Virus record (IMG/VR): IMGVR_UViG_3300032307_000516 | Coordinates: 8,050-72,049 of that record | Length of the DNA: 64,000 nt | Source: a virus | Reading direction: 5' to 3' (one strand) | In this document: positions 1 through 55,008 of the stretch, piece by piece | Numbering within the stretch: the stretch's first letter is position 1 | Layout: each line of letters starts with the position of its first letter | Notes under the pieces: generated by a model | The model's input: the letters and a program-made list of their open reading frames with translations, nothing else | What the model was told of the DNA's origin: nothing | Database searches by the model: none | Translations under genes and position numbers: made by a program

Positions 1-1
1 T

Positions 2-211
2 TTTCAAAATGCAGAAGGTGAAGATACAACAATAGAAATTGCTGGCGCTTCTGAGCCAGAATATGTTGGAAGTTCAATGGTAAGCAATATCGAGATGATC
101 GAAGATTCAAGCTCTGACGGAAAAAAATATTCAATCGTTGGATATTACGATGAAGTGCCTGGTCAAGACGGTGAATATGAGCTTAAAAAAGTACTAGTAG
201 AAGAAATATAA
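2..211 (+). CDS. 3' end of hypothetical protein (truncated by window)
   Basis: Open frame from base 2 to TAA at 209-211 (FQNAEGED...VLVEEI). Confidence 0.7.
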   Translation, partial: FQNAEGEDTTIEIAGASEPEYVGSSMVSNIEMIEDSSSDGKKYSIVGYYDEVPGQDGEYELKKVLVEEI

Positions 212-213
212 TC

Positions 214-495
214 ATGTCAATCAGAGTCTATTCAGGATACGATGAATTTAAGTTCGAGGAAGAAGAAATCTGCGAATATTTAGAATCCGATTTCTCAGAT
301 TCAAACGATGATGATGAATCAGATGATGTATTTTTTTATACTGAATCTAAAATAGATTTTAGAGACGATGCTGATTTTTATATAATCTGTGATACAGAGG
401 ACGAGGAGACAGCAGAGGATATAGCTTCTTATTTAGGTAAGGCTAAAAAAATAAATTTAGAAGATTTTAGGAAATCATTTTTTTATATAAGATAA
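214..495 (+). CDS. acidic hypothetical protein
   Basis: 93-aa ORF, D/E-rich, follows previous ORF by 2 nt. Confidence 0.7.
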   Translation: MSIRVYSGYDEFKFEEEEICEYLESDFSDSNDDDESDDVFFYTESKIDFRDDADFYIICDTEDEETAEDIASYLGKAKKINLEDFRKSFFYIR

Positions 496-501
496 AATAT
501 C

Positions 502-539
502 TATATTTGTGAAACAAAACAACAAATAAGATATATAAA
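502..539 (+). promoter_or_regulatory. promoter region of tRNA operon 1 (TATATTTG; GAAAC-N17-ATATA; GATATATA)
   Basis: Bacteroidota -7 box TAnnTTTG at 502-509 plus two motifs that recur upstream of many genes in the window. Confidence 0.55.
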
Positions 540-545
540 GTTTAA

Positions 546-605
546 ATGAAAACAATACTTAACATATTACCTTCAATATTAAGACCGTCGATAAGACGAT
601 CCTAA
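546..605 (+). CDS. leader peptide 1 (MKTILNILPSILRPSIRRS)
   Basis: 19-codon uORF rich in ATA/TTA/CCN/TCN/AGA, matching downstream tRNAs; stop overlaps antiterminator. Confidence 0.85.
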   Translation: MKTILNILPSILRPSIRRS

Positions 606-670
606 AGGTCCTGTGTTAATAAAAAATAATCATTAACTAAACCGGGACCTTTAAAAGTCTCGGTTTTTTT
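603..670 (+). terminator. attenuator 1: antiterminator 603-613 / terminator 639-670
   Basis: AAACCGGGAC/GTCTCGGTTT hairpin plus U-tract; TAAAGGTCCTG can alternatively pair with CGGGACCTTTA (643-653). Confidence 0.85.
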
Positions 671-671
671 A

Positions 672-684
672 TGTTCTTTGACAT
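672..684 (+). promoter_or_regulatory. boxA-like antitermination element
   Basis: TGTTCTTTGACAT resembles rrn boxA (TGCTCTTTAACA); recurs before each tRNA block. Confidence 0.7.
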
Positions 685-700
685 GTTGGATTATCAAATT

Positions 701-787
701 GGAGAGGTGGCAGAGCCTGGTTTATTGCACCGGTCTTGAAAACCGACGTAGTGAAAGCTACCGGGGGTTCGAATCCCTCCCTCTCCG
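701..787 (+). tRNA. tRNA-Ser(TGA)
   Basis: Cloverleaf with long variable arm, anticodon loop CTTGAAA. Confidence 0.95.
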
Positions 788-792
788 CATTT

Positions 793-866
793 GGTCCGCT
801 AGCTCAGCTGGATAGAGCAACTGCCTTCTAAGCAGTAGGTCTCAGGTTCGAATCCTGAGCGGATCA
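793..866 (+). tRNA. tRNA-Arg(TCT)
   Basis: Cloverleaf, loop CTTCTAA. Confidence 0.95.
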
Positions 867-1033
867 CACAAATCCCTCTGCCTAGCGCTGGGTATGGATC
901 GAAGATAGAATATGCCTCTACACCGTAGACAGGTAGGATACCTCGGTATTCTTTAATGATATGCACACTTATTCTCCAAATCGTTGGTTGGCACAGTTTG
1001 TATGTTCTGGTGATACTTAAAGACATACAATTT

Positions 1034-1106
1034 CGGGATGTAGATCAGTTGGTAGATCGCCTGGTTTGGGACCAGGAGGCCCCAGGTTCGAGTCCTGGTA
1101 TCCCGA
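1034..1106 (+). tRNA. tRNA-Pro(TGG)
   Basis: Cloverleaf, loop TTTGGGA. Confidence 0.95.
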
Positions 1107-1109
1107 CTA

Positions 1110-1172
1110 CGGAGGCTGTAAAGTCAAACAGTGAAGAATTTAAAGGATGACATCTTTAAATCCCTCCGACCA
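1110..1172 (+). ncRNA. small three-way-junction RNA ending in ACCA
   Basis: CGGAGG/CCTCCG closing stem followed by ACCA; two internal hairpins. Confidence 0.5.
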
Positions 1173-1173
1173 T

Positions 1174-1247
1174 AGAGGCGTAGCTCAATTGGTTAGAGCA
1201 CATGCCTTATACGCATGCGGTCACGAGTTCGACTCTCGTCGTCTCTA
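1174..1247 (+). tRNA. tRNA-Ile(TAT)
   Basis: Cloverleaf, stem CATGC/GCATG, loop CTTATAC. Confidence 0.9.
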
Positions 1248-1251
1248 CTTA

Positions 1252-1325
1252 GGTCCCTTAGCTCAGTAGGTTAGAGCAACTGACTCATAATCAGTAGGTC
1301 CACGGTTCGAGCCCGTGAGGGACCA
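1252..1325 (+). tRNA. tRNA-Ile2(CAT), lysidine type
   Basis: Loop CTCATAA; body (GGTCCCTTAGCTCAG...) resembles bacterial Ile2; separate fMet and Met genes exist. Confidence 0.85.
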
Positions 1326-1416
1326 CAAAGATACGGATGAGATTTCTAAATCTCCTACTTACTTATGAAAAGAAGGATTCCGTAACTAATACCATATAGT
1401 AGTGATGGTATTGTCT

Positions 1417-1499
1417 GCCCGGATGTTGAAATAGGTAGACAAGACGGACTTAAAATCCGTTGGCCATTGGTCGTGAGGGTTCAAGTCCCTCTCCGGGTA
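1417..1499 (+). tRNA. tRNA-Leu(TAA)
   Basis: Cloverleaf with variable arm, loop CTTAAAA. Confidence 0.95.
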
Positions 1500-1504
1500 C
1501 AAAT

Positions 1505-1611
1505 ATAATAGTGGCAGAGAGGCTTAATGCTGAGCATACATAGAGTCTGGGAATGTGGTATGTATGATACCTATACACGGGGACTCGCAGGTTCGAATCC
1601 TGTCTATTATA
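1505..1611 (+). ncRNA. tRNA-like RNA with replaced anticodon arm
   Basis: Acceptor ATAATAG/CTATTAT, D arm, T arm GCAGG-TTCGAAT-CCTGT, 56-nt non-canonical centre. Confidence 0.6.
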
Positions 1612-1614
1612 TAT

Positions 1615-1719
1615 ATAGGAGTGGCGGAAGCGTGATCTTTGCAAAGGTCCGATAGATAGACGACAGGGTGTCATACCCGAGAATGAAAGTTCATATTGGT
1701 GCAAGTCCAATCTCCTGTA
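1615..1719 (+). ncRNA. tRNA-like RNA with D-loop insertion and aberrant anticodon arm
   Basis: Acceptor ATAGGAG/CTCCTGT, Leu-like TGGCGGAA...TAGACG, T arm ATTGG-TGCAAGT-CCAAT. Confidence 0.55.
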
Positions 1720-1743
1720 CTTTTTTGATATATATAAAGAATC

Positions 1744-2115
1744 ATGAGTGAACATATTAAGATATCAGGAATGGGTATAGAAATATACAAAAATGATATA
1801 CCAGGTGTAAGATGGAATAAAGCTCAGTCTTTTGCTCAGATTCTTGGAGATGGATGGAGATTACCAACTTTAGAAGAACTTGCTTTAATAAGATCAATAA
1901 GAAATATAGGTGATATAGGAAGATTTCCTGTAGAATATTCGGATTTTTCCGATTCATATTACTGGAGTAACGAAGAACGCGAATTTACTACTAAAAAAAT
2001 GATGGGAAGTAGTCTTAAAAGTACCTATGCTTACTTTTTTGATATGGCTGAAGGAACTTCTTCACACAATAAAAAGTCATACGAGCTTAGGGCTAGATTT
2101 GTTAGAGATATATAA
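1744..2115 (+). CDS. DUF1566/Lcl-like domain protein
   Basis: GWRLPTLEEL, YYWS and C-terminal RARFVR motifs. Confidence 0.7.
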   Translation: MSEHIKISGMGIEIYKNDIPGVRWNKAQSFAQILGDGWRLPTLEELALIRSIRNIGDIGRFPVEYSDFSDSYYWSNEEREFTTKKMMGSSLKSTYAYFFDMAEGTSSHNKKSYELRARFVRDI

Positions 2116-2118
2116 ATC

Positions 2119-2895
2119 ATGCCAACAACAAGAGCATTTGCATATAATCCAGCACAAGCAACAATTTCTGGAACTACAAATATAGGTACATTATGTGTAG
2201 GTGTATCTGCTTTAAATTACGGAGGAAATCCTGGTGGATTAACTTGGTGGATGGGTCCGGACGAGGATAATTCTTATGTTATAGCTAAGGATGTGCCAAC
2301 AGCAGACTTCCCTACTCCAGTAGGTAATGTTGGTAATGTACAATTTTGGAGATGTTCTAACAACAGCTCAGAATTCACTAATCTTGTTACATTAATAAGT
2401 GGTACTACACAAGCATCTGCTTCTGCTGCTCAATCGTGGCTATCAACAAATAATTATTGGACTAATTACACTAGCGGAGTAACTTTCTCACAACCTTTTG
2501 TAAATGGTACTGCACCAACAAATGCAGTAGAAACTGCTTGGAATACATTTAGAGCATCTTTAACAGGTTCTTATACACAATTTGTTGTATCTAATTCATT
2601 AGGGTTTAGTTTAACAGTAAGTCATGCTACTTCAGTACAGACTTTGGCAAATGCACTAAGAAATGCAACAAATAATACCTCGGTAACTATAAACAGCGTA
2701 GTTTGGAGAGTAGGAACAGGATGTGGAACTCCTAAAATAGGTGGGGTTGCTGTTGAATTTTCCAACGTAGCAAGCTGTAGTTCATCAAGTACTATAGCAT
2801 TTAGACCTATGATTAATAACTTAAACTGGGGAGGTATGGGTACAGGATCTACTGTAGGACAGGCTTCACAAACAATGACACTAACATTTAGCTAA
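2119..2895 (+). CDS. hypothetical protein, probably virion-associated (T/S/G/N-rich)
   Basis: 258-aa ORF preceded by GATATATA motif. Confidence 0.7.
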   Translation: MPTTRAFAYNPAQATISGTTNIGTLCVGVSALNYGGNPGGLTWWMGPDEDNSYVIAKDVPTADFPTPVGNVGNVQFWRCSNNSSEFTNLVTLISGTTQASASAAQSWLSTNNYWTNYTSGVTFSQPFVNGTAPTNAVETAWNTFRASLTGSYTQFVVSNSLGFSLTVSHATSVQTLANALRNATNNTSVTINSVVWRVGTGCGTPKIGGVAVEFSNVASCSSSSTIAFRPMINNLNWGGMGTGSTVGQASQTMTLTFS

Positions 2896-3047
2896 TGGAA
2901 ACTTATAGAATAATAGACTTAAGAGTAACCCCAAATGAAATAGTACCAGGTAAGGAATCTGTTACTTTAGAAGAGGGACAATTATGGATAGACGAGAACG
3001 GAGGAGATTGTCCATTGTGCGACTATACGCTATTAATCAATGAATAA
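2895..3047 (+). CDS. small hypothetical protein (50 aa, CxxC)
   Basis: TAATG overlap with upstream gene; METYRIIDL...DCPLCDYTLLINE. Confidence 0.55.
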   Translation: METYRIIDLRVTPNEIVPGKESVTLEEGQLWIDENGGDCPLCDYTLLINE

Positions 3048-3153
3048 ATGTAGATTTTTTAAAATAATTTGAAAAAAATACAAAAAACATTTTTTTAAAC
3101 GGGAACTTTTCCGTACTTTTGGAGTATATAATAAAAAAGGAACAAAACTTTCA

Positions 3154-3243
3154 ATGAAACACTTTTTAAATATCGAAATGGATCTTCAGCTTCTAAAAGG
3201 AGACGAACGTCTTGAGGATACAAATAAGTGTCAGAGGAAATAA
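3154..3243 (+). CDS. leader peptide 2 (MKHFLNIEMDLQLLKGDERLEDTNKCQRK)
   Basis: 29-codon uORF rich in GAR, GAY and CTN codons, matching downstream Glu/Asp/Leu(TAG) tRNAs. Confidence 0.8.
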   Translation: MKHFLNIEMDLQLLKGDERLEDTNKCQRK

Positions 3244-3293
3244 ATTTATATAAAGATATAATTTAAACCTCTGATAACCTCAGAGGTTTTTTT
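3229..3293 (+). terminator. attenuator 2: antiterminator 3229-3237 / terminator 3265-3293
   Basis: AAACCTCTGA/TCAGAGGTTT hairpin plus U-tract; TGTCAGAGG pairs alternatively with CCTCTGATA. Confidence 0.85.
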
Positions 3294-3301
3294 GTTTTAT
3301 A

Positions 3302-3314
3302 CGCTCTTTGAAAT
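3302..3314 (+). promoter_or_regulatory. boxA-like element
   Basis: CGCTCTTTGAAAT. Confidence 0.65.
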
Positions 3315-3317
3315 TAT

Positions 3318-3392
3318 GGTCCCTTCGTCTATCGGTTAGGACGTTAGGTTTTCATCCTAGAAAGAGGGGTTCGATTCCCCTAGGGACTACCA
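3318..3392 (+). tRNA. tRNA-Glu(TTC)
   Basis: Cloverleaf, loop TTTTCAT, encoded CCA. Confidence 0.95.
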
Positions 3393-3397
3393 GAAAA

Positions 3398-3471
3398 GGT
3401 CCTACAGTCCAGTTGGAGTGGACGCCGCCCTGTCACGGCGGAGATCGCGGGTTCGAGTCCCGCTAGGACCG
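3398..3471 (+). tRNA. tRNA-Asp(GTC)
   Basis: Cloverleaf, loop CTGTCAC. Confidence 0.95.
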
Positions 3472-3569
3472 CTAAAACTTATGCTACATAGAGCAAAGCA
3501 GAAAGGTACGATCTGGTACACTATGAAGTACAAATAGAAAGTCAGATCATAAGTTTTAAAAAATTATAT

Positions 3570-3642
<73 letters not shown>

Positions 3643-3856
3643 CTAATAAGTTATTTGAAATATTTGCGAAAAGTTCGATGGAATCAATTATAGGTCCAGG
3701 GCACAAATCCGTGTGAGGAATCCAATTGATAGAAGAACCTTCTACTGAGTAATGCACGTACACGTGATATCCATAGAAAAGTCCTAATAAGTTAAAGGCA
3801 AAGGAGTTGATAATACCGGTTAAAAACAACTTTATCTCTTTAGATAGCAAATAAAT

Positions 3857-3936
3857 GCCCTCGTGGTGGAATTGGTAGACACGCTAGACTTAGGATCTAG
3901 TGCGAAAGCGTGAGAGTTCGAGTCTCTCCGAGGGTA
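3857..3936 (+). tRNA. tRNA-Leu(TAG)
   Basis: Cloverleaf with variable arm, loop CTTAGGA. Confidence 0.95.
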
Positions 3937-3938
3937 CT

Positions 3939-4436
3939 ATGAAAGTTATATTTTTAGATTTTGATGGTGTTCTTAATCTTATACCTCAAGGACATGACTA
4001 TTACGGAGGGATTTTTCACCCTGAATTTGTCGGCAACCTAGGTAGGATTATAGAGGAAACTGGAGCAAAACTTGTGATAAGCTCTTCGTGGAGAACTATG
4101 GGATTGGAAAGACTTAGAATGATGTGGGAACATCGTTTATATCCAGGAGACATCATAGGAGTTACCCCAGATCTTAGATGGAGGACAAAAAAAGATGCTA
4201 TGGAATTAAACGAAGTCGAGTACGTTAGAGGAGATGAAATAGAGTCATGGCTAAATCTACATCCGGAGGTAACTAATTATGTTATACTTGACGATGATGA
4301 TGATATGTTACAATCACAAAGAATAAACTTTGTAAGAACATCTGATAATATTAATCATCCTGATTGCATTGATATAGGATACGGATTAACTAATATTTGT
4401 TCTAACGATGCAATTAGAATTTTAAACAGAAAATAA
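3939..4436 (+). CDS. HAD-superfamily phosphatase (HAD_SAK_2-like)
   Basis: MKVIFLDFDGVL, SSSWR, RGDEI, YVILDD motifs; start corrected to the ATG after tRNA-Leu. Confidence 0.85.
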   Translation: MKVIFLDFDGVLNLIPQGHDYYGGIFHPEFVGNLGRIIEETGAKLVISSSWRTMGLERLRMMWEHRLYPGDIIGVTPDLRWRTKKDAMELNEVEYVRGDEIESWLNLHPEVTNYVILDDDDDMLQSQRINFVRTSDNINHPDCIDIGYGLTNICSNDAIRILNRK

Positions 4437-5005
4437 TGAAAGTTATATTTTTAGATCATGATGGAGTAATTTGTCTTTCCCAGCAATTTGGTGGGCGTTA
4501 CAAAAAGCAGACTAAAGCTAGAACTAAGCTTTCTCAAAACGTGATGGATTTTCCAGTCGATGCTAGATTTGATAACTTCGATAAGAAAGCTATTAAAGTT
4601 CTAAACCTAATCTTAGAAGATACTGGAGCTGAAATAGTTGTTTCTTCTGATTGGAAGAACTGGGCAAATGTTGAAGAAATGGGCGAATATTACGAACAAC
4701 AAGGTATAATTAAAAAGCCTATTGATTTTACACCTAGAGAATACACAATGCCAGAGAAACAAGAATGGCATCCAGACTGGGATTTAGAAGCATCAAGAAC
4801 TTTAGAAATCCAAGAATGGCTAAAAGATCATCCAGAGGTTACTCATTGGGTAGCAATAGATGATTTAGATATGAGCTTTAAAGAGGTATCAAATAATAGA
4901 AGCGGTACTGGCTGGGGCTTAAAAAACTTTGTACACACCCCAAGTATCACTGAAGGGATTAAAAAAATGGGTATAAAAGAAAAAGTTTTAAAATTTTTAA
5001 AATAA
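4436..5005 (+). CDS. HAD-superfamily phosphatase (HAD_SAK_2-like), paralog
   Basis: FLDHDGV, SSDWK, WVAIDD motifs. Confidence 0.85.
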   Translation: MKVIFLDHDGVICLSQQFGGRYKKQTKARTKLSQNVMDFPVDARFDNFDKKAIKVLNLILEDTGAEIVVSSDWKNWANVEEMGEYYEQQGIIKKPIDFTPREYTMPEKQEWHPDWDLEASRTLEIQEWLKDHPEVTHWVAIDDLDMSFKEVSNNRSGTGWGLKNFVHTPSITEGIKKMGIKEKVLKFLK

Positions 5006-5088
5006 TTTCAAAAAACATTTTTTTATTTAAAAAATATATTGTACTTTTACGAAACTATTCTGGAAACAGGATATATAATTAAGAAAAA

Positions 5089-5196
5089 ATGAAAAACTGT
5101 AGTAAACATAACATCAATCGCATGAACAGTCAAATTAATGGCTGCTATCAAACGGTGGCGTTTTGGGCTAAGGGGAAAGAACCCGATCGAAGCTAA
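5089..5196 (+). CDS. leader peptide 3 (MKNCSKHNINRMNSQINGCYQTVAFWAKGKEPDRS)
   Basis: 35-codon uORF; first 30 codons use exactly the 16 amino acids whose tRNAs lie downstream. Confidence 0.88.
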   Translation: MKNCSKHNINRMNSQINGCYQTVAFWAKGKEPDRS

Positions 5197-5255
5197 TACA
5201 GAAAATCATAATTAGATATTTTGGAAAAGGCTTCGATTTAATCGAAGCCTTTTTT
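5185..5255 (+). terminator. attenuator 3: antiterminator 5185-5194 / terminator 5225-5255
   Basis: AAAAGGCTTCGAT/ATCGAAGCCTTTT hairpin plus U-tract; GATCGAAGCT pairs alternatively with GGCTTCGATT. Confidence 0.85.
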
Positions 5256-5258
5256 ATT

Positions 5259-5271
5259 TGTTCTTTGACAT
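5259..5271 (+). promoter_or_regulatory. boxA-like element
   Basis: TGTTCTTTGACAT, identical to 672-684. Confidence 0.7.
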
Positions 5272-5283
5272 ACTGGAAAAAAT

Positions 5284-5356
5284 GGTACCGTAGCTCAGTT
5301 GGTAGAGCACTAGACTGAAAATCTAGGTGTCGCCGGTTCGATTCCGGCCGGTACCA
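5284..5356 (+). tRNA. tRNA-Phe(GAA)
   Basis: Cloverleaf, loop CTGAAAA. Confidence 0.95.
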
Positions 5357-5427
5357 CAATACTAAACAAGAAATTGTCTCACTAAACTAATCATGTTTAG
5401 TATTACAAAAACAAGTTTAGTAACAAT

Positions 5428-5501
5428 GATCTCGTAGCTCAGTTGGCTAGAGCACCTCACTTTTAATGAGGGAGTCGAGGGTTCGAGCCCCTCCGGGATC
5501 A
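5428..5501 (+). tRNA. tRNA-Lys(TTT)
   Basis: Cloverleaf, loop CTTTTAA. Confidence 0.95.
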
Positions 5502-5507
5502 CTACAC

Positions 5508-5580
5508 ACGTCAGTAGCTCAATTGGTAGAGCGTTGGTCTCCAAAACCAAAGGTCGTAGGTTCGATTCCTACCTGGCGTG
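5508..5580 (+). tRNA. tRNA-Trp(CCA)
   Basis: Cloverleaf, loop CTCCAAA. Confidence 0.95.
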
Positions 5581-5586
5581 CTAAAA

Positions 5587-5659
5587 GGCTCTGTAGTTCA
5601 AGGGATTAGAATGGATCACTACGGATGATCTGATCCTGGTTCGAATCCAGGTGGAGTCT
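5587..5659 (+). tRNA. tRNA-Arg(ACG)
   Basis: Cloverleaf, loop CTACGGA. Confidence 0.9.
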
Positions 5660-5670
5660 CAAACAAATAA

Positions 5671-5742
5671 GGTCGTGTGGTCGAGTGGTTTAGGCACTAG
5701 TCTGCAAAACTAGTTATACTGGTTCAATTCCAGTCACGGCCT
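5671..5742 (+). tRNA. tRNA-Cys(GCA)
   Basis: Cloverleaf, loop CTGCAAA, U73. Confidence 0.92.
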
Positions 5743-5759
5743 CAAAAAATGTAAGAAGT

Positions 5760-5885
5760 ATGAAAATAGTTATTGAAGGAAAAATGAAATCGTCGAATCA
5801 CAGATTAAATGCGATTCCAGTTAAAATTGAAAGAAAAAATTCTCTAATCAAAAGAATCAAAAGATTGATTAATAAAGGAAAGTAA
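5760..5885 (+). CDS. small basic hypothetical protein (41 aa)
   Basis: MKIVIEGKMKSS...RLINKGK fills the spacer; stop lies inside tRNA-Ser(GCT). Confidence 0.4.
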   Translation: MKIVIEGKMKSSNHRLNAIPVKIERKNSLIKRIKRLINKGK

Positions 5886-5962
5886 TCTCAGATGGTGACG
5901 GGGCTCGCCTGCTAAGCGAAGCGTACCTTAATTGGTATTTGGTTCGATTCCAATTCTTTCCG
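5877..5962 (+). tRNA. tRNA-Ser(GCT)
   Basis: Loop CTGCTAA, long variable arm; slightly imperfect stems. Confidence 0.85.
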
Positions 5963-5968
5963 CAACAT

Positions 5969-6042
5969 TGACATATAGCTCAGTTGGTTAGAGCGTTGAT
6001 CTGATACGTCAAAGGTCGAAGGTTCGAATCCTTCTATGTCAA
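5969..6042 (+). tRNA. tRNA-Ile(GAT)
   Basis: Cloverleaf, loop CTGATAC. Confidence 0.93.
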
Positions 6043-6058
6043 CTTAAAAATTATAAAA

Positions 6059-6085
6059 ATGAAAAAAGAATTTGACAACTTGTAG
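6059..6085 (+). CDS. 8-aa uORF MKKEFDNL whose TAG lies in a hairpin
   Basis: A-rich leader, ATG...TTG TAG; CTTGTAGG/CCTACAAG hairpin abuts the ATG at 6106. Confidence 0.45.
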   Translation: MKKEFDNL

Positions 6086-6105
6086 GTTTAATTAAACCCT
6101 ACAAG

Positions 6106-6297
6106 ATGAGTAAAAACACAAACAGAGCAAAACTGAACAAAGCAATGAATGGTAGAGAACACAGAAACATTTTAAATAATGCTCTTTATCCTCCATACAG
6201 TGAATATGATCACACATGGTGGCATGGAAATTTATCCAATCACAAATGGAGATCATACAAAACCTGGAAACACAACAGAAAAACAAAATGGAAGTAA
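6106..6297 (+). CDS. small basic Trp/Lys-rich hypothetical protein
   Basis: 63-aa ORF ending WRSYKTWKHNRKTKWK. Confidence 0.65.
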   Translation: MSKNTNRAKLNKAMNGREHRNILNNALYPPYSEYDHTWWHGNLSNHKWRSYKTWKHNRKTKWK

Positions 6298-6308
6298 TTC
6301 CATTTTAC

Positions 6309-6381
6309 AGTCTCTTAGCTCAGTTGGTAGAGCGCTTGGTTTACATCCAAGATGTCGGGGGTTCGAGCCCCTCAGGGACTA
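6309..6381 (+). tRNA. tRNA-Val(TAC)
   Basis: Cloverleaf, loop TTTACAT. Confidence 0.95.
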
Positions 6382-6384
6382 CAA

Positions 6385-6537
6385 GATTAGAAGCGGTAGA
6401 TTTGGTTACTTCGCACTTTTAATGCCCGTGTCGGGGGTTCGAATCCCTCATCTAGCTCCATAGCAGATCCTAGGATTTGTGCTAGATTAGCTCAGCGGTA
6501 GAGCAGGTTCCAAACCAAATCTAAATATTCTCTAATC
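6385..6537 (+). ncRNA. scaffold RNA copy 1 enclosing a circularly permuted tRNA-Lys(TTT)
   Basis: 3' tRNA half 6413-6460 precedes 5' half 6481-6507; flanks GATTAGA/TCTAATC and AGATTTGGTT/AACCAAATCT pair. Confidence 0.85.
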
Positions 6538-6545
6538 CTAATATT

Positions 6546-6629
6546 GATTAGAAGCGGTGAAAGGGGTTACTTCTCAAAACCTTGTAAATTTTTGACCAAA
6601 AAACCACCCCGATTAAATATTCTCTAATC
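6546..6629 (+). ncRNA. scaffold RNA copy 2 without tRNA cargo
   Basis: GATTAGAAGCGGT...GGTTACTTC...TAAATATTCTCTAATC repeated, with a different inner stem GGGGT/ACCCC. Confidence 0.75.
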
Positions 6630-6635
6630 AAAACT

Positions 6636-6707
6636 GGGGATGTAGCTCAGCGGTAGAGCTCCCGACTGTTAATCGGTAGGTCGCTGGTTCGAATCCAGCC
6701 TTCCCCG
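6636..6707 (+). tRNA. tRNA-Asn(GTT)
   Basis: Cloverleaf, loop CTGTTAA. Confidence 0.93.
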
Positions 6708-6743
6708 CAATTCAGAGTGTTGAGCAATTGGTTGCTCAGCTGA
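6687..6743 (+). repeat. direct repeat copy 1 (tRNA-Asn 3' end plus truncated tRNA-Tyr 5' part)
   Basis: Near-identical to 7870-7927. Confidence 0.85.
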
Positions 6744-6780
6744 TAAAAGAATATATTATATTTAGATTCAATTTTAAGTT

Positions 6781-7716
6781 ATGACAGGATACCATATATA
6801 CTACCAAACATCAGAAGATGGAGAATATGAGCAAATAAATTATTTAGTTCAATTAGCTTCAATTTTAAATTGGAAAAAGAATTATGGCCCCATCAAATTG
6901 TATTGTAACCAAAGATTTCTAGAGTCTATATCCAAATATGGAATTGATAAAGAATATGATTTTATTGATACTGAGTATTTAGAATCAGTTCCATATAAAG
7001 ATAGTATGTCGACATTTTGGAGCTTTTGCAAAATTTATGTCGCTAAAAAGATTGTCGAAACTGAATCGGAATTTTGTATTTTAGATACTGATTTATGGAT
7101 TCAAGCGCCTGACTTATTAAGTCAAGAACATGATTTAGTTTTACATCACGCTGAAGCTTATGATCTAAATTATGATCGCAACCCATATCCAGATCCTAGA
7201 AATTGGTTAATTGAGTCAGAGATAGAAGAATATGATTGGAATACCTCTCCCGCAAATTGCGCGATATTGTATTTTAAAAATAAAAGTAAAGAGTTAATAG
7301 ATGCTTGGTATGAATTTGCAATTAAAATAGTAGAGCGTCATAAAGATAATAATACAGAACCGAATTTGCGTTGCGGTACTATTTTTATCGAGCAACGTCT
7401 ATTACCTACAATAGCAAAGAAAATGGGTATATCAATGACGGTCGTGTCTCCTTGTACTTATTTAACTTGGATACCAGCTTCATTGGCTGATGGGCGGGAA
7501 TGGAGGCCTTCATTAGATTATTCAGAACGATCTTTATATATTGGTTCTAATATTAAACATGTATGGGGAGCAAAAAAGTTTTATTCTGAAAATTGGATTC
7601 GGGAGTTAATAATTGACAATGCTATGATAGGAATTAATTTAGTTCAGAATCAAGAAAGAAAGTATTTTAAGTTATACAGTGATGTGCATGAAGTGCATCC
7701 AAAAAAATATATTTAA
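6781..7716 (+). CDS. DUF6734-like / GT-A glycosyltransferase-like protein
   Basis: GPIKLY, FWSFCKIY, hydrophobic strand plus DTD (DxD), EQ motif. Confidence 0.6.
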   Translation: MTGYHIYYQTSEDGEYEQINYLVQLASILNWKKNYGPIKLYCNQRFLESISKYGIDKEYDFIDTEYLESVPYKDSMSTFWSFCKIYVAKKIVETESEFCILDTDLWIQAPDLLSQEHDLVLHHAEAYDLNYDRNPYPDPRNWLIESEIEEYDWNTSPANCAILYFKNKSKELIDAWYEFAIKIVERHKDNNTEPNLRCGTIFIEQRLLPTIAKKMGISMTVVSPCTYLTWIPASLADGREWRPSLDYSERSLYIGSNIKHVWGAKKFYSENWIRELIIDNAMIGINLVQNQERKYFKLYSDVHEVHPKKYI

Positions 7717-7785
7717 AATAAATTAAAAAATATTTGGTACTTACAAATGGTAACACCTTATATTTATATATAGTTAAAAAGAAAT

Positions 7786-7799
7786 AGTTCTTTAAAAAT
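7786..7799 (+). promoter_or_regulatory. boxA-like element
   Basis: AGTTCTTTAAAAAT directly upstream of tRNA block. Confidence 0.5.
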
Positions 7800-7802
7800 A
7801 TT

Positions 7803-7891
7803 GGAAGGGTGACAGAGTTGGTCTATCGCGCCGGTCTTGAAAACCGGTGAACTCGAAAGGGTTCAGTGAGTTCGAATCCAACCTTCCCTCG
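7803..7891 (+). pseudogene. chimeric pseudo-tRNA-Ser(TGA) with Asn-derived 3' end
   Basis: Ser-type 5' part and variable arm intact; T stem and acceptor mispair because sequence after GTTCGAATC matches tRNA-Asn. Confidence 0.75.
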
Positions 7892-7927
7892 CACTTCGGA
7901 GTGTTGAGCAATTGGCTGCTCAGCTGA
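7870..7927 (+). repeat. direct repeat copy 2
   Basis: Near-identical to 6687-6743. Confidence 0.85.
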
Positions 7928-7981
7928 CTGTAAATCAGCCGCCTTACGGCATTGGGGGTTCGAATCCCTCCGCTCCGACCA
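7897..7981 (+). tRNA. tRNA-Tyr(GTA), C1:G72
   Basis: Loop CTGTAAA, variable arm, encoded CCA. Confidence 0.93.
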
Positions 7982-7984
7982 AAT

Positions 7985-8059
7985 GCAGGTATCGTATAAC
8001 GGTCATTACTTCTGACTTCCAATCAGAAGATCTCGGTTCGATTCCGGGTACCTGCTCCA
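7985..8059 (+). tRNA. tRNA-Gly(TCC)
   Basis: Loop CTTCCAA, U73, CCA. Confidence 0.95.
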
Positions 8060-8062
8060 AAT

Positions 8063-8102
8063 GCCGGGTGATCCTCTCGTTGAATCACGAGAGCCGGCTC
8101 CA
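8063..8102 (+). ncRNA. 40-nt minihelix-like RNA ending TCCA
   Basis: GCCGG/CCGGC-T-CCA stacked on CTCTCGT/ACGAGAG hairpin. Confidence 0.5.
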
Positions 8103-8103
8103 C

Positions 8104-8177
8104 GGGGGATTAGCTCAGTTGGCTAGAGTACTTGCCTTGCACGCAAGGGGTCATCGGTTCGAATCCGATATCCTCCA
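8104..8177 (+). tRNA. tRNA-Ala(TGC)
   Basis: Loop CTTGCAC, G3:U70. Confidence 0.95.
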
Positions 8178-8186
8178 CTTTTATAT

Positions 8187-8259
8187 GGCGAGTTAGCTCA
8201 GTTGGTAGAGCGTCGGAATCATACCCCGAAGGTCGGCAGTTCGAACCTGCCACTCGCTA
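8187..8259 (+). tRNA. tRNA-Met(CAT), elongator
   Basis: Loop ATCATAC, paired 1:72. Confidence 0.9.
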
Positions 8260-8261
8260 CT

Positions 8262-8338
8262 GTGACGGTAGCTCAGTTGGTTAGAGCGTCTGATTGTGGT
8301 TCAGAAGGTCGGGGGTTCGATTCCCCTCTGTCACCCCA
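8262..8338 (+). tRNA. tRNA-His(GTG)
   Basis: Loop TTGTGGT, C73, CCA. Confidence 0.93.
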
Positions 8339-8339
8339 T

Positions 8340-8412
8340 GCCTTTGTAGCTCAGCTGGTAGAGCGCTTCACTTGTAATGAAGATGTCGCAGGTTCGATCC
8401 CTGTCAAAGGCT
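8340..8412 (+). tRNA. tRNA-Thr(TGT)
   Basis: Loop CTTGTAA. Confidence 0.95.
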
Positions 8413-8418
8413 CTATAA

Positions 8419-8491
8419 TGTCCTGTGGTGTAATTGGCAACACGTCTGATTTTGGTTCAGAAGAGTCCAGGTTCGAGCCCTGGCGGGACAT
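8419..8491 (+). tRNA. tRNA-Gln(TTG)
   Basis: Loop TTTTGGT, U1:A72. Confidence 0.95.
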
Positions 8492-8537
8492 CTAAAAAAT
8501 AAGATAAATACAATAACCAGTATGTAAAAATAGAGCT

Positions 8538-9026
8538 ATGAAAGTGCTAGTATTAAATAATGACTTTACGCCTATAAGCGTTACCGATTTTGCCCGGGGA
8601 TTTAAGCTTGTATATAAAGGTAAAGCAGAAATTTTAGAGCACGATGAACAAAACCCAATTGTTACTGATCAAAGCACCTACAAAAGACCATCAGTAATTC
8701 GACTTCTAAAGTATGTTGTTTTGCCTTTCAAAAAGCTAAAACCTACAAGGGAAAATATCTTTAAAAGAGATGAGATGAAATGTATCTATTGTGATACATC
8801 AAAAAATCTCACAATAGATCACGTTTTTCCCAGATCTAGAGGTGGTGGTAACACATGGGAAAATTTAGCTACATGCTGTTCAAAATGTAACGGTAGAAAA
8901 GGAGATAGAACCCCGGAAGAAGCCGGAATGAAAATGAGACAAAAGCCATTTAAACCCGGATATGGCTATTTCATAAGGAATTTTTCCAAAGGAATAGATG
9001 TGTGGACAGCATATCTTCCAGATTAA
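8538..9026 (+). CDS. HNH endonuclease (McrA-like)
   Basis: CxYC, TIDHVFPRSRGG, WENL, CxxCN motifs. Confidence 0.9.
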   Translation: MKVLVLNNDFTPISVTDFARGFKLVYKGKAEILEHDEQNPIVTDQSTYKRPSVIRLLKYVVLPFKKLKPTRENIFKRDEMKCIYCDTSKNLTIDHVFPRSRGGGNTWENLATCCSKCNGRKGDRTPEEAGMKMRQKPFKPGYGYFIRNFSKGIDVWTAYLPD

Positions 9027-51143: not shown

Positions 51144-51733
51144 AACCTTTTAAAGATCAATTTGAAGATTATCAATTAAGCATTTCTGGATTATCCTCGT
51201 TAGCAGAGGAATCTTTTATGTTTTGGTTTAAAAATTTTGTAAACCAGAAGAGCCAATTTAATCCCCTTGACTTTTTACCTGGTAAATTTTATTCTTTTGA
51301 ATACAACGATGTATTGGAAAAGAATAAAAAATTCATAAATAAAAGACCAGTTATATTCTTTACTGGATTTATGAACTACGAGAATAAGCAAGCTTTTAGT
51401 GGTATAGATATAATATTGATGCCACCTATTTTTAGGTTAGCATTTTTTTCAAGAATACAATCTGTTTACCAGGATATAATAGAATCTAACATAAGAAAGG
51501 TAGAGAATGGAGAGAATCTCGGGCAAATGCCTCTTAAGACTGATTACGAAACTCTAGATATCATTATGAAAGGCATACCATATAAAAATACATATAGGGC
51601 ATGGGATTTAAAAAAAGTTCGTGATGTAATGGAAATTCCCTACGAAGATTGGACTAGAATAGTATATCTACATACTAGGTCAATTCAAGGGACCCCGATA
51701 GAAGAGATATATACTAAAAACTCAAAGATCTAA
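51140..51733 (+). CDS. DNA end protector (gp2-like)
   Basis: PGKFYSFEY, context next to gp4. Confidence 0.55.
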   Translation: MKPFKDQFEDYQLSISGLSSLAEESFMFWFKNFVNQKSQFNPLDFLPGKFYSFEYNDVLEKNKKFINKRPVIFFTGFMNYENKQAFSGIDIILMPPIFRLAFFSRIQSVYQDIIESNIRKVENGENLGQMPLKTDYETLDIIMKGIPYKNTYRAWDLKKVRDVMEIPYEDWTRIVYLHTRSIQGTPIEEIYTKNSKI

Positions 51734-53355
51734 TGGCTGGATTTACAGACGGAAATAAAACTTTTTTTAGCTCTATCGTTGATAGTATTAAAAAGGTTAG
51801 TAGCTTCGGGATGGCTTATGAGGATCTTGTTATAAAGAATTCGCAAGCTGTAGGTGTTACTGAAGCACAATTCTTACAAAAAGGAGGTATCAAAGATGAG
51901 GCTTTCCTTTTTGGATTAAGAAGAGCTGATACCTCAACAAAACAGTATATAGCTTATTTCGATAAGGATTATAAAAACAAAAGACATTACCTACAAGGAT
52001 TTGCACAGAATCCCGAGATTGAATTTATCTTGGATACCATATGTGACGAATCTATTGTATATGACGAAAAGAACTTCTGGGCTTATTTCTCTTTCATGCA
52101 GCACGAAGATGTTGATGAAGAGACATACAAGAAAGTACAAAAGAGATACAGAGAGATTTACAATCTATTTGGATTCAATCAAGATATTTTAGCTTGGCAC
52201 CTTTACAGAAAATTCTTAGTAGAAGGTATCTTATCATTCGAAATTGTTTTCGATAAAAAAGGTAAGAACATCGTAGGATTTAAAGAATTGGATCCAGCAT
52301 CTCTGGTACCAACTGTAGAGCAACAACCAGATGGAAGCTATATTGATATTTGGATTCAATATCCAGACAATCCGTCTTTGACAAGAAAACTTTACGATTC
52401 TCAGATAATTTATATAAGTTACGCAAAAGGAGGTGGTACATCATCTAGAGTAAGTTATGTTGAAAGAATGATTAGATCTTTTAACCTCCTGAGAATCATG
52501 GAACACACAAGAATCATATGGAACGTGATGAATTCATCATATCGTATGGCAATGACAGTTCCTATCGGTACTAAATCACCACAAAAAGCTAAGCAAACTC
52601 TCGGAGAACTTATGTCTATCTATAAAGAAGATATAAGATTAAATACAGACAGTGGAGAATTAACAGTAGACGGAAGACCTAAAATACAATTCTTTAAAAA
52701 CTATTTAATGCCTTCATCACCTAACGGAACTCCTGATATACAACCTTTAGCAGGAGCTGGTGATGCAACAGCATTTAGTGATACAACAGCATTAAAATAT
52801 TTTGCTAATAAACTTCGAATGGATTCAAAAATTCCGGTAACACGATTTGGAAGGGAAGAATCAGGATCCGAAGGTACAATTACATTCGCAGCAGAGGGGG
52901 TTGATCAAGAAGAAATCAGATTTGGTAAATTCATTAACAGATTAAGATCTATTTACCAGGACATACTTATGAAGCCTTTATGGGTTCAGTTCTGTTTAGA
53001 TTTTCCTGAATTAAAGAAAGATTATATCCTTAAATCGGAATTTGGTCTAGATTATGTTAAGGAGAACATGTTTAGAGAATCTAAAGATATGGAAGTAATG
53101 ACCGCAAGAAAGGATCAGGTGATTAAAATATCTGCTCTTAAAAATTCAGAAGGCAAAAATTACTTCAGTATGGATTTCCTTATAGATCGATTCCTAGGAA
53201 TGACCAATCAGGATTTATTAGATAATAAAAAAGCTAAAGAAAAAGCTGCCGAAGCAAAAAAAGAGGCTGAAGGAGCAACAGGAGCTGAAGGAGCTACTGG
53301 TGCTGAAGGAGCTACCGGAGGCGAAGAAGGCGGAGGCGAAGAATTCAAATTATAA
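51733..53355 (+). CDS. portal protein (gp20-like) 1
   Basis: PEIE, ELDP, SYVER, EEIRFGKFINRLR. Confidence 0.88.
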   Translation: MAGFTDGNKTFFSSIVDSIKKVSSFGMAYEDLVIKNSQAVGVTEAQFLQKGGIKDEAFLFGLRRADTSTKQYIAYFDKDYKNKRHYLQGFAQNPEIEFILDTICDESIVYDEKNFWAYFSFMQHEDVDEETYKKVQKRYREIYNLFGFNQDILAWHLYRKFLVEGILSFEIVFDKKGKNIVGFKELDPASLVPTVEQQPDGSYIDIWIQYPDNPSLTRKLYDSQIIYISYAKGGGTSSRVSYVERMIRSFNLLRIMEHTRIIWNVMNSSYRMAMTVPIGTKSPQKAKQTLGELMSIYKEDIRLNTDSGELTVDGRPKIQFFKNYLMPSSPNGTPDIQPLAGAGDATAFSDTTALKYFANKLRMDSKIPVTRFGREESGSEGTITFAAEGVDQEEIRFGKFINRLRSIYQDILMKPLWVQFCLDFPELKKDYILKSEFGLDYVKENMFRESKDMEVMTARKDQVIKISALKNSEGKNYFSMDFLIDRFLGMTNQDLLDNKKAKEKAAEAKKEAEGATGAEGATGAEGATGGEEGGGEEFKL

Positions 53356-53358
53356 GAG

Positions 53359-55008
53359 ATGGCTGGATTTTTAGATAACATAGGTAAATTTAACCCAAAC
53401 GTATCAAGGATACTAAAAACTATTAGTGGACTTGGATCTTTTGGTATGGATTACAAGGACATGGTAATTCAAGACTCTATGGCTATCGGTATATCCGAAG
53501 CAGATCTTAGAGAAAGATTTGGATTTAGCGGGGATGATGAGGACTTCATCTACAGTATTGCTGCACAAGATACTACGAACAGAAAGTATATTGCATATTT
53601 CGATAAGGATTATCCTTTTAAAAGAGACTTCTTAAGAACATTTGCTCTGAATGCTGAAATAGAATACATCTTAGACACTATTTGTGATGAGGGTATAGTA
53701 TATGATGAAAAGAACTTCTTTTGTCACAATGCGATGCTTAGTATGGATTTACAGGACGAAGTAATAAAAGCTCTTAGAAAGAATTTCAGAAAGCTATACG
53801 TACTTCATAATTTTGCAAACGGATTAACTGCATGGCAATACTTCAGACAGTTATTAGTAGAAGGATTCTTAGCATTTGAAATAATATATTCTAGTGATGG
53901 TAAAGAAATCGTAGGATTTAAAGAATTGGATGCTATAAGTCTTACACCTGCAGTAGAGAAAAAAGCTGACGGGACTAGAGAAACCATATGGTGGCAGTAC
54001 TACGGAGAAACGACTAGACAAAGAAGATTGTTAGATGCGCAAGTTATTTATATCTCTTATGCTAAAGCAAATACTGTTTCTAGAACTTCTTATGTTGAAC
54101 GTCTTATCAGATCTTATAACTTATTAAAGATTATGGAGCATTCCAGAATTATATGGAATGTGATGAACGCTCAGTATAGAATTAAAATGACGGTTCCTAT
54201 TGGAAGTAAGTCACCACAAAAGGCAAAAGAGACTTTAGGTGAACTTATGTCAGTTTACAAAGAGGATATTAAATTAGATACAACTTCGGGGGAACTTGCT
54301 ATTAATGGCAGGCCTGATCTTCAATTTTACAAAAATTACTTATTTCCTCAGCAAGGAGGAGATTCAGTTAAAGTTGAAACAATAAATGCACAAGGACCAA
54401 ACCTAAACGTAATGGATTCTGTTCTTTATTTCTATAACAAACTAAGACAGGATTCAAAAATTCCTTACAACAGGTTCTCATCACGATTTGGGGTAGGAGC
54501 TAACAACGTATTTCATACCGCTGCAGATGGTGCAGAAAGGGATGAGGTTAGATTCTCTAAGTTTATCACTAGATTAAGATCGATATTTCAGGAAATAGTT
54601 GTTAAGCCATTATGGATTCAAATGTGTCTTGAATTCCCACATTTAAAAAACGATACAGAATTTAGAAGCCAAATAGGTATTAAATTTGAAAGTGATAACA
54701 CATTCGGGGAATCTAGAGAGATAGAACAATTACTCAAAAAGATAGATTTTGTAACAGCCCTTGGGGAGATAAAAGAAACTGTTAACGATGAGGAAATACA
54801 ATACTTTAATCAAGACTTCCTTATTGAAAGATGGCTAGGTCTTCCTAATGACGATATACAAATGAATAAAACATATCTGGAAAAAGATAAGGAAGAAGGA
54901 CAAGGAGCAGCTACTGGAGCAGCACCAGCAGAAGGTGGAGAAGCAGCTACCGGAGCAGCACCAGCAGAGGGTGAAGCACCAGCAGAAACACCAGCAGAAG
55001 GAGCATAA
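53359..55008 (+). CDS. portal protein (gp20-like) 2
   Basis: Paralog; RDEVRFSKFITRLR. Confidence 0.88.
   Translation: MAGFLDNIGKFNPNVSRILKTISGLGSFGMDYKDMVIQDSMAIGISEADLRERFGFSGDDEDFIYSIAAQDTTNRKYIAYFDKDYPFKRDFLRTFALNAEIEYILDTICDEGIVYDEKNFFCHNAMLSMDLQDEVIKALRKNFRKLYVLHNFANGLTAWQYFRQLLVEGFLAFEIIYSSDGKEIVGFKELDAISLTPAVEKKADGTRETIWWQYYGETTRQRRLLDAQVIYISYAKANTVSRTSYVERLIRSYNLLKIMEHSRIIWNVMNAQYRIKMTVPIGSKSPQKAKETLGELMSVYKEDIKLDTTSGELAINGRPDLQFYKNYLFPQQGGDSVKVETINAQGPNLNVMDSVLYFYNKLRQDSKIPYNRFSSRFGVGANNVFHTAADGAERDEVRFSKFITRLRSIFQEIVVKPLWIQMCLEFPHLKNDTEFRSQIGIKFESDNTFGESREIEQLLKKIDFVTALGEIKETVNDEEIQYFNQDFLIERWLGLPNDDIQMNKTYLEKDKEEGQGAATGAAPAEGGEAATGAAPAEGEAPAETPAEGA

Follow-up and report, generated by a model that had tools for sequence, protein, structure and literature searches.

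Leader-peptide attenuators are known for the trp, his, leu, thr, ilv, and pheA operons and for pheST in Proteobacteria, and the transfer RNA (tRNA) arrays of phages are viewed either as compensation for codon usage or as replacement of degraded or cleaved host tRNAs. How phages regulate such tRNA genes, common as they are, has been little explored. Here, we describe a stretch of viral DNA of 64,000 nucleotides (nt), spanning bases 8050 to 72049 of the 72-kb IMG/VR virus record IMGVR_UViG_3300032307_000516 (the whole stretch is referred to below as the window), the first 8.5 kb of which contains 26 tRNA genes on the plus strand (identified with ARAGORN). This near-complete set falls into three groups, each with a short open reading frame (ORF) and a strong intrinsic terminator ahead of it. 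The element under study, leader 2, precedes the second group, which encodes tRNA-Glu, tRNA-Asp, initiator tRNA-Met, and tRNA-Leu(UAG), and we consider it probable that it is a ribosome-mediated (leader-peptide) transcription attenuator of this operon.

Like the attenuators of amino acid operons, for one of which the classical pheL mechanism is described in PMC3082878, leader 2 combines a short upstream ORF (uORF) with regulatory codons, an intrinsic terminator, and an antiterminator 5' strand that overlaps the end of the uORF; in both, the position of a stalled ribosome decides the fold, as a prediction in the present case. However, the regulated genes would here be tRNAs instead of enzymes or synthetases, and the leaders in the window carry a mixed set of codons for the tRNAs of their operon, not a run for a single amino acid. 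Leader 2 further differs in being phage-borne, in having both terminator arms sequestered in the read-through fold, and in the boxA-like motif that follows. With T-box riboswitches, it would share the tying of translation-related genes to the state of specific tRNAs through a choice between terminator and antiterminator. A T-box, in contrast, lacks a translated uORF and is itself the binding site of the uncharged tRNA, whereas the ORF of leader 2 behaves as coding, and no T-box was matched by Rfam at an E value of ≤1 in positions 1 to 9000 of the window. The same search returned tRNAs and sub-threshold noise; its one hit to an amino acid leader family, Thr_leader (E = 0.9; 22.9 bits, against a gathering score of 55), fell on leader 1, and leader 2 had none. 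Compared with phage tRNA arrays in general, the near-complete set of 26 in a large myovirus is familiar and the translated-type leaders are what is added. Neither for phages nor for cells did a literature search, in a body of work from which subscription journals were mostly missing, turn up a translated leader or attenuator ahead of tRNA genes, and an earlier description is possible. An E. coli tRNA-Phe attenuator, considered as a potential precedent, was rejected, as pheV in MG1655 lacks a leader, its promoter immediately adjoining the tRNA.

A preliminary description of the locus, made from the letters of the sequence, had pictured leader 2 as an attenuator of this kind, and the expected anatomy was indeed found: a uORF, a strong terminator, and an antiterminator competing with it (Table 1). 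Promoter-like element, uORF, terminator, and tRNA start all lie inside 230 nt, with the terminator (3265 to 3289) 28 nt 5' of tRNA-Glu, and the terminators of the three leaders (639 to 666, 3265 to 3289, and 5222 to 5256) were the three best scores of the terminator scan. In the mechanism that we infer, with uORF translation, stalling, and read-through as its steps, transcription would start at a Bacteroidota-type promoter some 35 nt 5' of the uORF. A ribosome finishing the 29-codon uORF would cover UGUCAGAGG, upon which the terminator at 3265 to 3289 would form and polymerase would stop before the tRNAs. With charged Glu, Asp, or Leu tRNA scarce, the ribosome would instead stall in codons 8 to 22, leaving the 3' third of the uORF free to pair with both terminator arms, and polymerase would continue into the tRNA genes. 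The outcome would be negative feedback on the supply of the operon's own tRNAs.

Table 1. Positions, in the window, of the parts of leader 2, of its tRNA operon, and of the two sister leaders
Feature	Position	Strand	Remarks
Promoter-like element	3088-3121	+	CATTTTTTTA, 16 nt, then TACTTTTG (-7 box, TAnnTTTG type)
Gene-start motif RTATATAAW	3124-3132	+	Here GTATATAAT
RTATATAAW, example sites	1730, 2108, 12916, 23244, 30304, 33769, 59462		
Region 1 (start region and codons 1-7)	3149-3174	+	Possible partner of region 2 (anti-antiterminator)
uORF (leader peptide)	3154-3243	+	ATG at 3154, TAA at 3241-3243; 29 codons plus stop; peptide MKHFLNIEMDLQLLKGDERLEDTNKCQRK
Glu/Asp/Leu-rich stretch, codons 8-22	3175-3219	+	Codons 8-19 vary among homologs
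Outer antiterminator strand UCUUGAGG	3210-3217	+	UCU-GAGG, codons 19-22; partner strand at 3278-3284 (loop and 3' arm of the terminator)
Inner antiterminator strand UGUCAGAGG	3229-3237	+	Codons 26-28; pairs with 3268-3276
A/U hairpin inside antiterminator helix	3243-3264	+	RNAalifold helix 3; 97.7% of cells paired
Intrinsic terminator	3265-3298	+	10-bp stem, 5-nt loop (3265-3289), T-run; -12.5 kcal/mol; invariant in 9 homologs
boxA-like motif GCTCTTTGAAAT	3303-3314	+	Between terminator and first tRNA
tRNA-Glu (UUC)	3318-3392	+	
tRNA-Asp (GUC)	3398-3472	+	
Initiator-type tRNA-Met (CAU)	3570-3643	+	U1xU72 unpaired, A11:U24, GGG:CCC in anticodon stem
tRNA-Leu (UAG)	3857-3937	+	
Sister leader 1	546-684	+	uORF 546-605, terminator 639-666, motif 675-684
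Sister leader 3	5089-5271	+	uORF 5089-5196, terminator 5222-5256, motif 5262-5271; precedes 16-tRNA array

Protein-anchored and pattern searches of viral contigs yielded nine distinct versions of leader 2, which were aligned. Each of the nine keeps the uORF open, over 29, 25, or 24 codons, with every insertion or deletion in frame and with the stop codon always directly after TGTCAGAGGAAW. The nucleotides are nearly invariant in the first seven codons, codons 20 to 22, and the last five codons, and the middle of the peptide varies freely in both sequence and length; an internal ATG of the uORF was found in the window alone. Judged by this alignment, the uORF of leader 2 evolves as a coding sequence. 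A 42-amino-acid ORF with a TTG start on the minus strand (3095 to 3223) was considered as well and was rejected, the corresponding stop-free stretches among homologs ranging from 22 to 56 codons with no kept frame. The same alignment bears on the notion that the leader is a structured RNA switch, T-box-like in that a tRNA, or else a protein or a ligand, would bind to the RNA itself, and that its ORF is accidental. Such a switch would fit the long leader stretches that are invariant at the nucleotide level, as well as the folding z-score of −3.06, but no Rfam family matches any of the leaders, and neither the restriction of indels to whole codons nor the variable central segment is what it would lead one to expect; we regard this explanation as extremely improbable.

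The preliminary description had also proposed that a segment near the end of the uORF competes for the terminator 5' arm, and such a segment is present: TGTCAGAGG (3229 to 3237) can form 9 base pairs (bp), including one G.U pair, with CCTCTGATA (3268 to 3276), the segment of the 5' arm also written CCUCUGAUA and complementary to UGUCAGAGG. RNAalifold, applied to the nine homologs, gave the read-through fold and not the terminator, with the inner and outer strands paired and the A/U hairpin, which presumably shortens the antiterminator loop, between them; all seven pairs of the outer strand are invariant across the nine. To model the ribosome, the fold was restricted to the RNA downstream of it. 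With the ribosomal aminoacyl (A) site at codons 1 to 14 or 18 to 22, the antiterminator was predicted with a probability (P) of ≥0.8, whereas with the A site anywhere from codon 23 to the stop codon, the inner strand is covered and the terminator was predicted with a P value of >0.9. The folding prediction thus contains both the mutual exclusion of terminator and antiterminator and the masking of the latter by a ribosome at the stop codon, and all ten GAR, GAY, and CTN codons of the uORF sit in the modeled read-through zone.

These ten codons (codons 8, 10, 11, 13, 14, 17, 18, 20, 21, and 22, reading GAA, GAT, CTT, CTT, CTA, GAC, GAA, CTT, GAG, and GAT) all fall within codons 8 to 22, and our recount agrees with the earlier figure of 10 of 15. 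For a span that had been picked post hoc in the preliminary description, this density was matched by none of the 14,714 15-codon windows taken from 41 of the window's ORFs, and windows of 28 codons, 14,181 in number, likewise contain no such 15-codon stretch. Leader 2 is not alone in this respect. Ahead of tRNA-Ser(UGA), -Arg(UCU), -Pro(UGG), -Ile(UAU), -Met, and -Leu(UAA), the uORF of leader 1 has 11 cognate codons out of 18, a number reached by 3 of 14,591 windows, and that of leader 3 has a codon for 15 of the 16 tRNAs behind it, as did 4 of 13,935 windows. Set against these, the match of the whole uORF of leader 2 (8 of 28 codons) is less clean, as had been stated at the outset.

A wider class of leaders emerged from unrelated viral contigs. 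A scan of such contigs for a T-run followed by GTTCTTTGACAT gave at least 120 stretches, of which 81 candidates were examined; 26 of the 81 had a tRNA cluster within 60 nt, each with a promoter-like element, a uORF, and a terminator. With a looser pattern, run on the collected viral loci and the window, 159 motif matches led to 74 leaders, and a gap filter of 35 to 95 nt reduced the 53 distinct leaders to 52, which belong to 20 peptide families. Their uORFs are 19 to 43 codons long, begin with ATG AAA in 35 of 52 cases, and stop 42 to 81 nt 5' of the T-run. The leader of L142, to which a wrong uORF frame had been assigned automatically, was the one dropped by the filter; read by eye, its uORF is MKNLLDILMAAVLMVDVLLWAAEEDKLCAVG, ahead of Asp, Asp, Glu, Glu, and Glu tRNAs. 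The N termini of many of the leader peptides follow the pattern M-K-x-[LFI]-[LN]-[ND]-I-[LI] (MKHFLNI, MKTILNIL, MKNLNNIL, MKTLLDIL, and MKNLNIIL, for instance), for which shared ancestry, a constraint on the nascent peptide, or an RNA element (region 1) could be responsible.

Across this class, the uORF matches the tRNAs behind it. With one representative taken from each of the 20 families, the tRNAs of a leader's own cluster read 203 of 608 codons, compared to a permuted mean of 133 (standard deviation, 12.3; maximum, 184), and none of 20,000 permutations reached 203, a significance that is overstated, since the families share ancestry. A cognate codon in its own uORF was found for 116 of 122 tRNAs, with clusters cut at gaps of >300 nt and at locus ends; shuffled pairings gave a mean of 81.4 (±6) and a maximum of 100, and 0 of 5000 reached 116. 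For 19 amino acids, every leader with the given tRNA downstream has that residue in its uORF. Glu makes up 0.085 of the residues in uORFs followed by tRNA-Glu and 0.013 in the others, and for Leu, the corresponding values are 0.181 and 0.062. Individual cases illustrate the match: MKTLLDILNLFAAEHLWADDEKLCTVG stands ahead of Asp, Glu, Leu-GAG, Leu-UAG, Ala, and Leu-CAA tRNAs, and MKNLFHTTTSSSTSTSSCDEDTRALLRDR stands ahead of Ser, Ser, Thr, and Cys tRNAs. The pairing partner is a class feature, too, and covaries at this level. When the uORF end, taken as its final 30 nt plus 6 nt, was compared with upstream windows as a partner of the terminator 5' arm, the uORF end was the best partner in 24 of 24 leaders, with stem sequences that differ between families, and in 18 of the 24, at most 10 of 200 shuffles paired as well as the uORF end.

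Several points nevertheless weigh against the attenuator reading or its codon specificity, apart from the shared ancestry and the cutting of clusters, which bear on the numbers just given. Counted over the whole uORF and with strict wobble, the 8 of 28 codons of leader 2 that match the four downstream tRNAs were equalled by 1617 of 14,181 real-gene windows (P = 0.11); if the UAG anticodon is taken to read all CTN codons by U34 four-box wobble, the 11 of 28 were equalled by 371 of these windows (P = 0.026), so that the enrichment is weak. CTT makes up three of the four Leu codons in the central part, and to read it the UAG anticodon would need that extended wobble; in the homologs, the number of cognate codons falls to 4 to 7 by the strict count and to 7 to 9 by the broad one. 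Codons 20 to 22 (CTT GAG GAT) consist of invariant nucleotides that pair with the terminator loop and 3' arm (3278 to 3284), and RNA structure alone could explain their conservation. The antiterminator stems are likewise invariant in close homologs and, therefore, offer no covariation for or against the fold. Across the class, the choice among synonymous codons is not tuned (for Leu, 19 codons that are read by the cluster and 15 that are not, versus 17.9 expected), individual enrichment reached a P value of <0.05 in only 10 (strict) or 11 (broad) of the 20 families, and four leaders (L125, L093, L197, and L207) showed no enrichment, even though all their tRNAs are covered. Finally, extra tRNA would be of no help where the amino acid or its charging, and not the tRNA, is limiting. 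Of the earlier proposal that leader 2 senses Glu, Asp, and Leu (as CTN codons), what is supported is that uORF composition tracks the tRNA set in the 20 families, and sensing specific to CTN codons is a conjecture; leader 2 likely senses the three at the amino acid level.

Some of the same observations would be expected if the leader were a general sensor of translation status, reporting any translation, be it through coupling, global slowdown, or host shut-off, with its codons only loosely tuned. The modest enrichment in leader 2, the half of the families that lack significant enrichment, the untuned synonymous choice, and a folding model in which any stall in codons 1 to 22 yields the antiterminator all suit such a sensor. 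It would not, however, account for an own-uORF coverage never reached by shuffled pairings, for runs like TTTSSSTSTSSC ahead of Ser, Ser, Thr, and Cys tRNAs (L191), or for the concentration of cognate-type codons in leader 2 that no 15-codon window matched, and we hold it to be improbable.

Compatible with the attenuator reading, but doubtful in our view, is the additional suggestion, made in the preliminary description, that initiation itself serves as a sensor of formyl-methionyl initiator tRNA (fMet): a scarce initiator would leave the uORF untranslated, the antiterminator would form by default, and the operon would be switched on. The CAU tRNA of the operon is of the initiator type (Table 1) and, by tRNA identity rules, is presumably an initiator; the 1:72 mismatch, A11:U24, and GGG:CCC are kept in 6 of 6 close homolog loci. 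In addition, four of the six tRNAs of the class that lack an internal cognate codon are CAU tRNAs, and in naked RNA with region 3 just transcribed, the antiterminator is favored in 9 of 9 homologs (P, 0.73 to 0.94). The full-length RNA of the window, in contrast, favors the terminator at equilibrium (P, 0.89 to 0.90), and among the homologs, the terminator reaches a P(3:4) value of ≥0.8 in 4 of 9 and predominates in 6 of 9. This preference is aided by a helix between the start region and region 2: the start region and codons 1 to 7 can pair with codons 21 to 29 (−18.8 kcal/mol), which would give termination without translation, as happens in the trp leader. The minimum free energy fold of the naked RNA is of the terminator type, with region 1:2 pairing present, in 5 of 9 homologs and of the antiterminator type in 4 of 9, and the region 1:2 helix shows one compensatory pair and, in one subtype, four broken pairs. 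The naked RNA is thus bistable, and an ATG knockout, for which full read-through had been forecast, could have either outcome.

Between the terminator and the first tRNA lies the boxA-like motif. The core TCTTTGAMAT occurs exactly three times in the window (675 to 684, 3305 to 3314, and 5262 to 5271), each time just 3' of a leader terminator, and the motif (GTTCTTTGACAT or GCTCTTTGAAAT), often followed by TTGG, takes the same place between terminator and first tRNA in unrelated viral loci (L093 to L208). In its RNA form, GUUCUUUGACAU, it is identical at 9 of 12 positions to the E. coli rrnB boxA, which PMC2176067 prints in a primer labeled boxA enhancer. Like the boxA or Nus sites of rRNA operons, the motif opens a long operon of untranslated RNA, and an array of several kb that is not translated is where antitermination of the Nus type would be expected to be useful. 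Unlike those sites, the motif could not be tied to rRNA in the Bacteroidota genomes sampled. Across 41 genomes from a single Bacteroidota family (the family of G001), the exact 12-mer showed no enrichment, with 27 matches versus 36 for the reversed control; it was absent from the 16S flanks of five Bacteroidota genomes, flanks of only 137 to 484 nt; six Bacteroidota loci with the motif contained no rRNA; and 0 of 20 Bacteroidota motif loci adjoin a tRNA or rRNA on the same strand. Among the 120 matches listed from bacterial and archaeal genome contigs, one (L325) precedes a tRNA array.

The motif also allows another arrangement to be imagined, in which the locus consists of two independent units, a uORF gene with its own terminator and a set of tRNAs transcribed from a separate promoter that uses TCTTTGACAT, the codon match being incidental. 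The motif does contain TTGACAT, resembling the −33 region of the promoters upstream of other leaders (e.g., CTTGACAT in L124), but it lies only 10 to 20 nt from the tRNA 5' end, with no TAnnTTTG or TATAAT box there, and two units would leave the coverage and pairing statistics unexplained. A sigma-70 scan of the window, which gave 26 sites versus 28.5 expected, had none between the leader 2 terminator and tRNA-Glu. We judge this arrangement very unlikely.

Upstream of leaders 1 and 2, the pattern CATTTTTTTA-N14-24-TANNTTTK accounts for both of its occurrences in the window (0.03 expected), and the promoter-like element keeps its position in leader 2 homologs. The TAnnTTTG box is a promoter element of Bacteroides and Flavobacterium, and it is on such boxes 5' of the leaders that a possible assignment of the host to the Bacteroidota rests. 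A second motif, RTATATAAW (mostly ATATATAAA), has 19 matches in the window versus 10.3 expected. Many of them are located 2 to 25 nt 5' of ORF starts on either strand, those of all three uORFs included, and the motif may be a phage promoter or a translation-start signal.

If the attenuator reading is correct, leader-peptide attenuation extends to a new class of targets, tRNAs themselves, and the phage gauges its decoding capacity separately for each set of tRNAs. Whether phage tRNAs serve codon-usage matching or replace tRNAs lost to shut-off or defense would become testable, with read-through of the leaders as a natural reporter of the tRNA that is limiting during infection, and the rule that each tRNA of the operon has a codon in the uORF offers an easy criterion by which metagenomes could be searched for such operons. 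Tentatively, and with less confidence than for attenuation as such, we envisage a codon-resolved tRNA homeostat in large phages with Bacteroidota-type promoters: the uORF would act as a barcode with at least one codon per tRNA, the operon would be on whenever any of its own tRNAs is limiting (with an AT-rich phage outrunning the host pool, or a host defense cleaving or depleting tRNAs), the initiator would be sensed via initiation at the uORF, and the boxA-like site would make the polymerase that has read through processive over the untranslated array.

The design is not universal among relatives, as the more distant L076 to L080 have their tRNA cluster after an ORF of 64 to 67 amino acids, with no leader. 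In homologs of leader 3, a C-G pair of the terminator has been replaced by U-A, a compensatory change, and in L176, a diverged homolog of leader 2, both the terminator (CCUCGGU/ACCGAGG) and the uORF end (CCGCCGAGC) have changed. Leaders seem to be slower to change than the arrays behind them. In L062 (7896 to 8607), the third array is down to six tRNAs behind an unchanged uORF, which still has codons for the missing ones. RNA sequencing runs contained 0.05 to 0.08 of the words of the stretch and were available as contigs only, in which starts, ends, and levels are not readable. A 401-nt contig of X18 (94% alike) spans the leader 3 terminator and extends into tRNA-Phe and tRNA-Lys (5182 to 5502), with carry-over of DNA as a possible source, and a 151-nt contig of X19 covers 3196 to 3314, a stretch with <31 letters past the T-run that was not counted as bridging.

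The tRNA genes themselves gave rise to some further observations. Initiator-type CAU tRNAs with a 1:72 mismatch also occur in Glu/Asp-type operons of L122, L128, L135, L086, and L176, which represent several unrelated leader families. In the window, tRNA-fMet is flanked by spacers of 97 nt (3473 to 3569) and 213 nt (3644 to 3856); since the same tRNAs are 4 to 11 nt apart in the close relatives L060 and L067, these spacers are insertions. Two leader 2 homologs (L084 and L091) have about 100 nt inserted between the boxA-like motif and tRNA-Glu. In the third array, ARAGORN missed a tRNA-like gene at 5876 to 5962, which matched the Rfam tRNA-Sec model with 38.3 bits, below the gathering score, and has an anticodon loop that reads GCT by eye; in the homologous array of L176, the corresponding position between Cys and Ile is taken by a tRNA-Ser(GCU). 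If this gene of the window is real, the AGT and AGC codons of the leader 3 uORF are cognate as well. Finally, two stretches of about 105 to 110 nt that lie 3' of tRNA-Leu(UAA), at 1503 to 1725, have T-arm-like ends (GGTTCGAATCC) but no tRNA call; decayed copies or insertion-bearing tRNAs may be what they represent. A contig from the RNA runs covers 1638 to 1725.

As for the source of the DNA, the window encodes tail sheath, large terminase, and portal proteins and is therefore, by its gene content, from a large tailed phage (myovirus). CheckV put the completeness of the record at 25%. No close relative was found among GenBank phages, 290 records of which matched, all via tRNA-sized pieces and none with a query cover of 80%, and the 8 kb of the record 5' of the window (L092) contains neither a tRNA nor the boxA-like motif. 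Two adjacent ORFs (51733 to 53355 and 53359 to 55008) both match portal family phrog_213 (E values of 7e-55 and 4e-58). Between the second tRNA operon and leader 3, tandem phrog_1818 paralogs to which no function is assigned occupy 3939 to 4436 and 4436 to 5005, and relatives of this family are widespread in viral contigs, with 57 loci.

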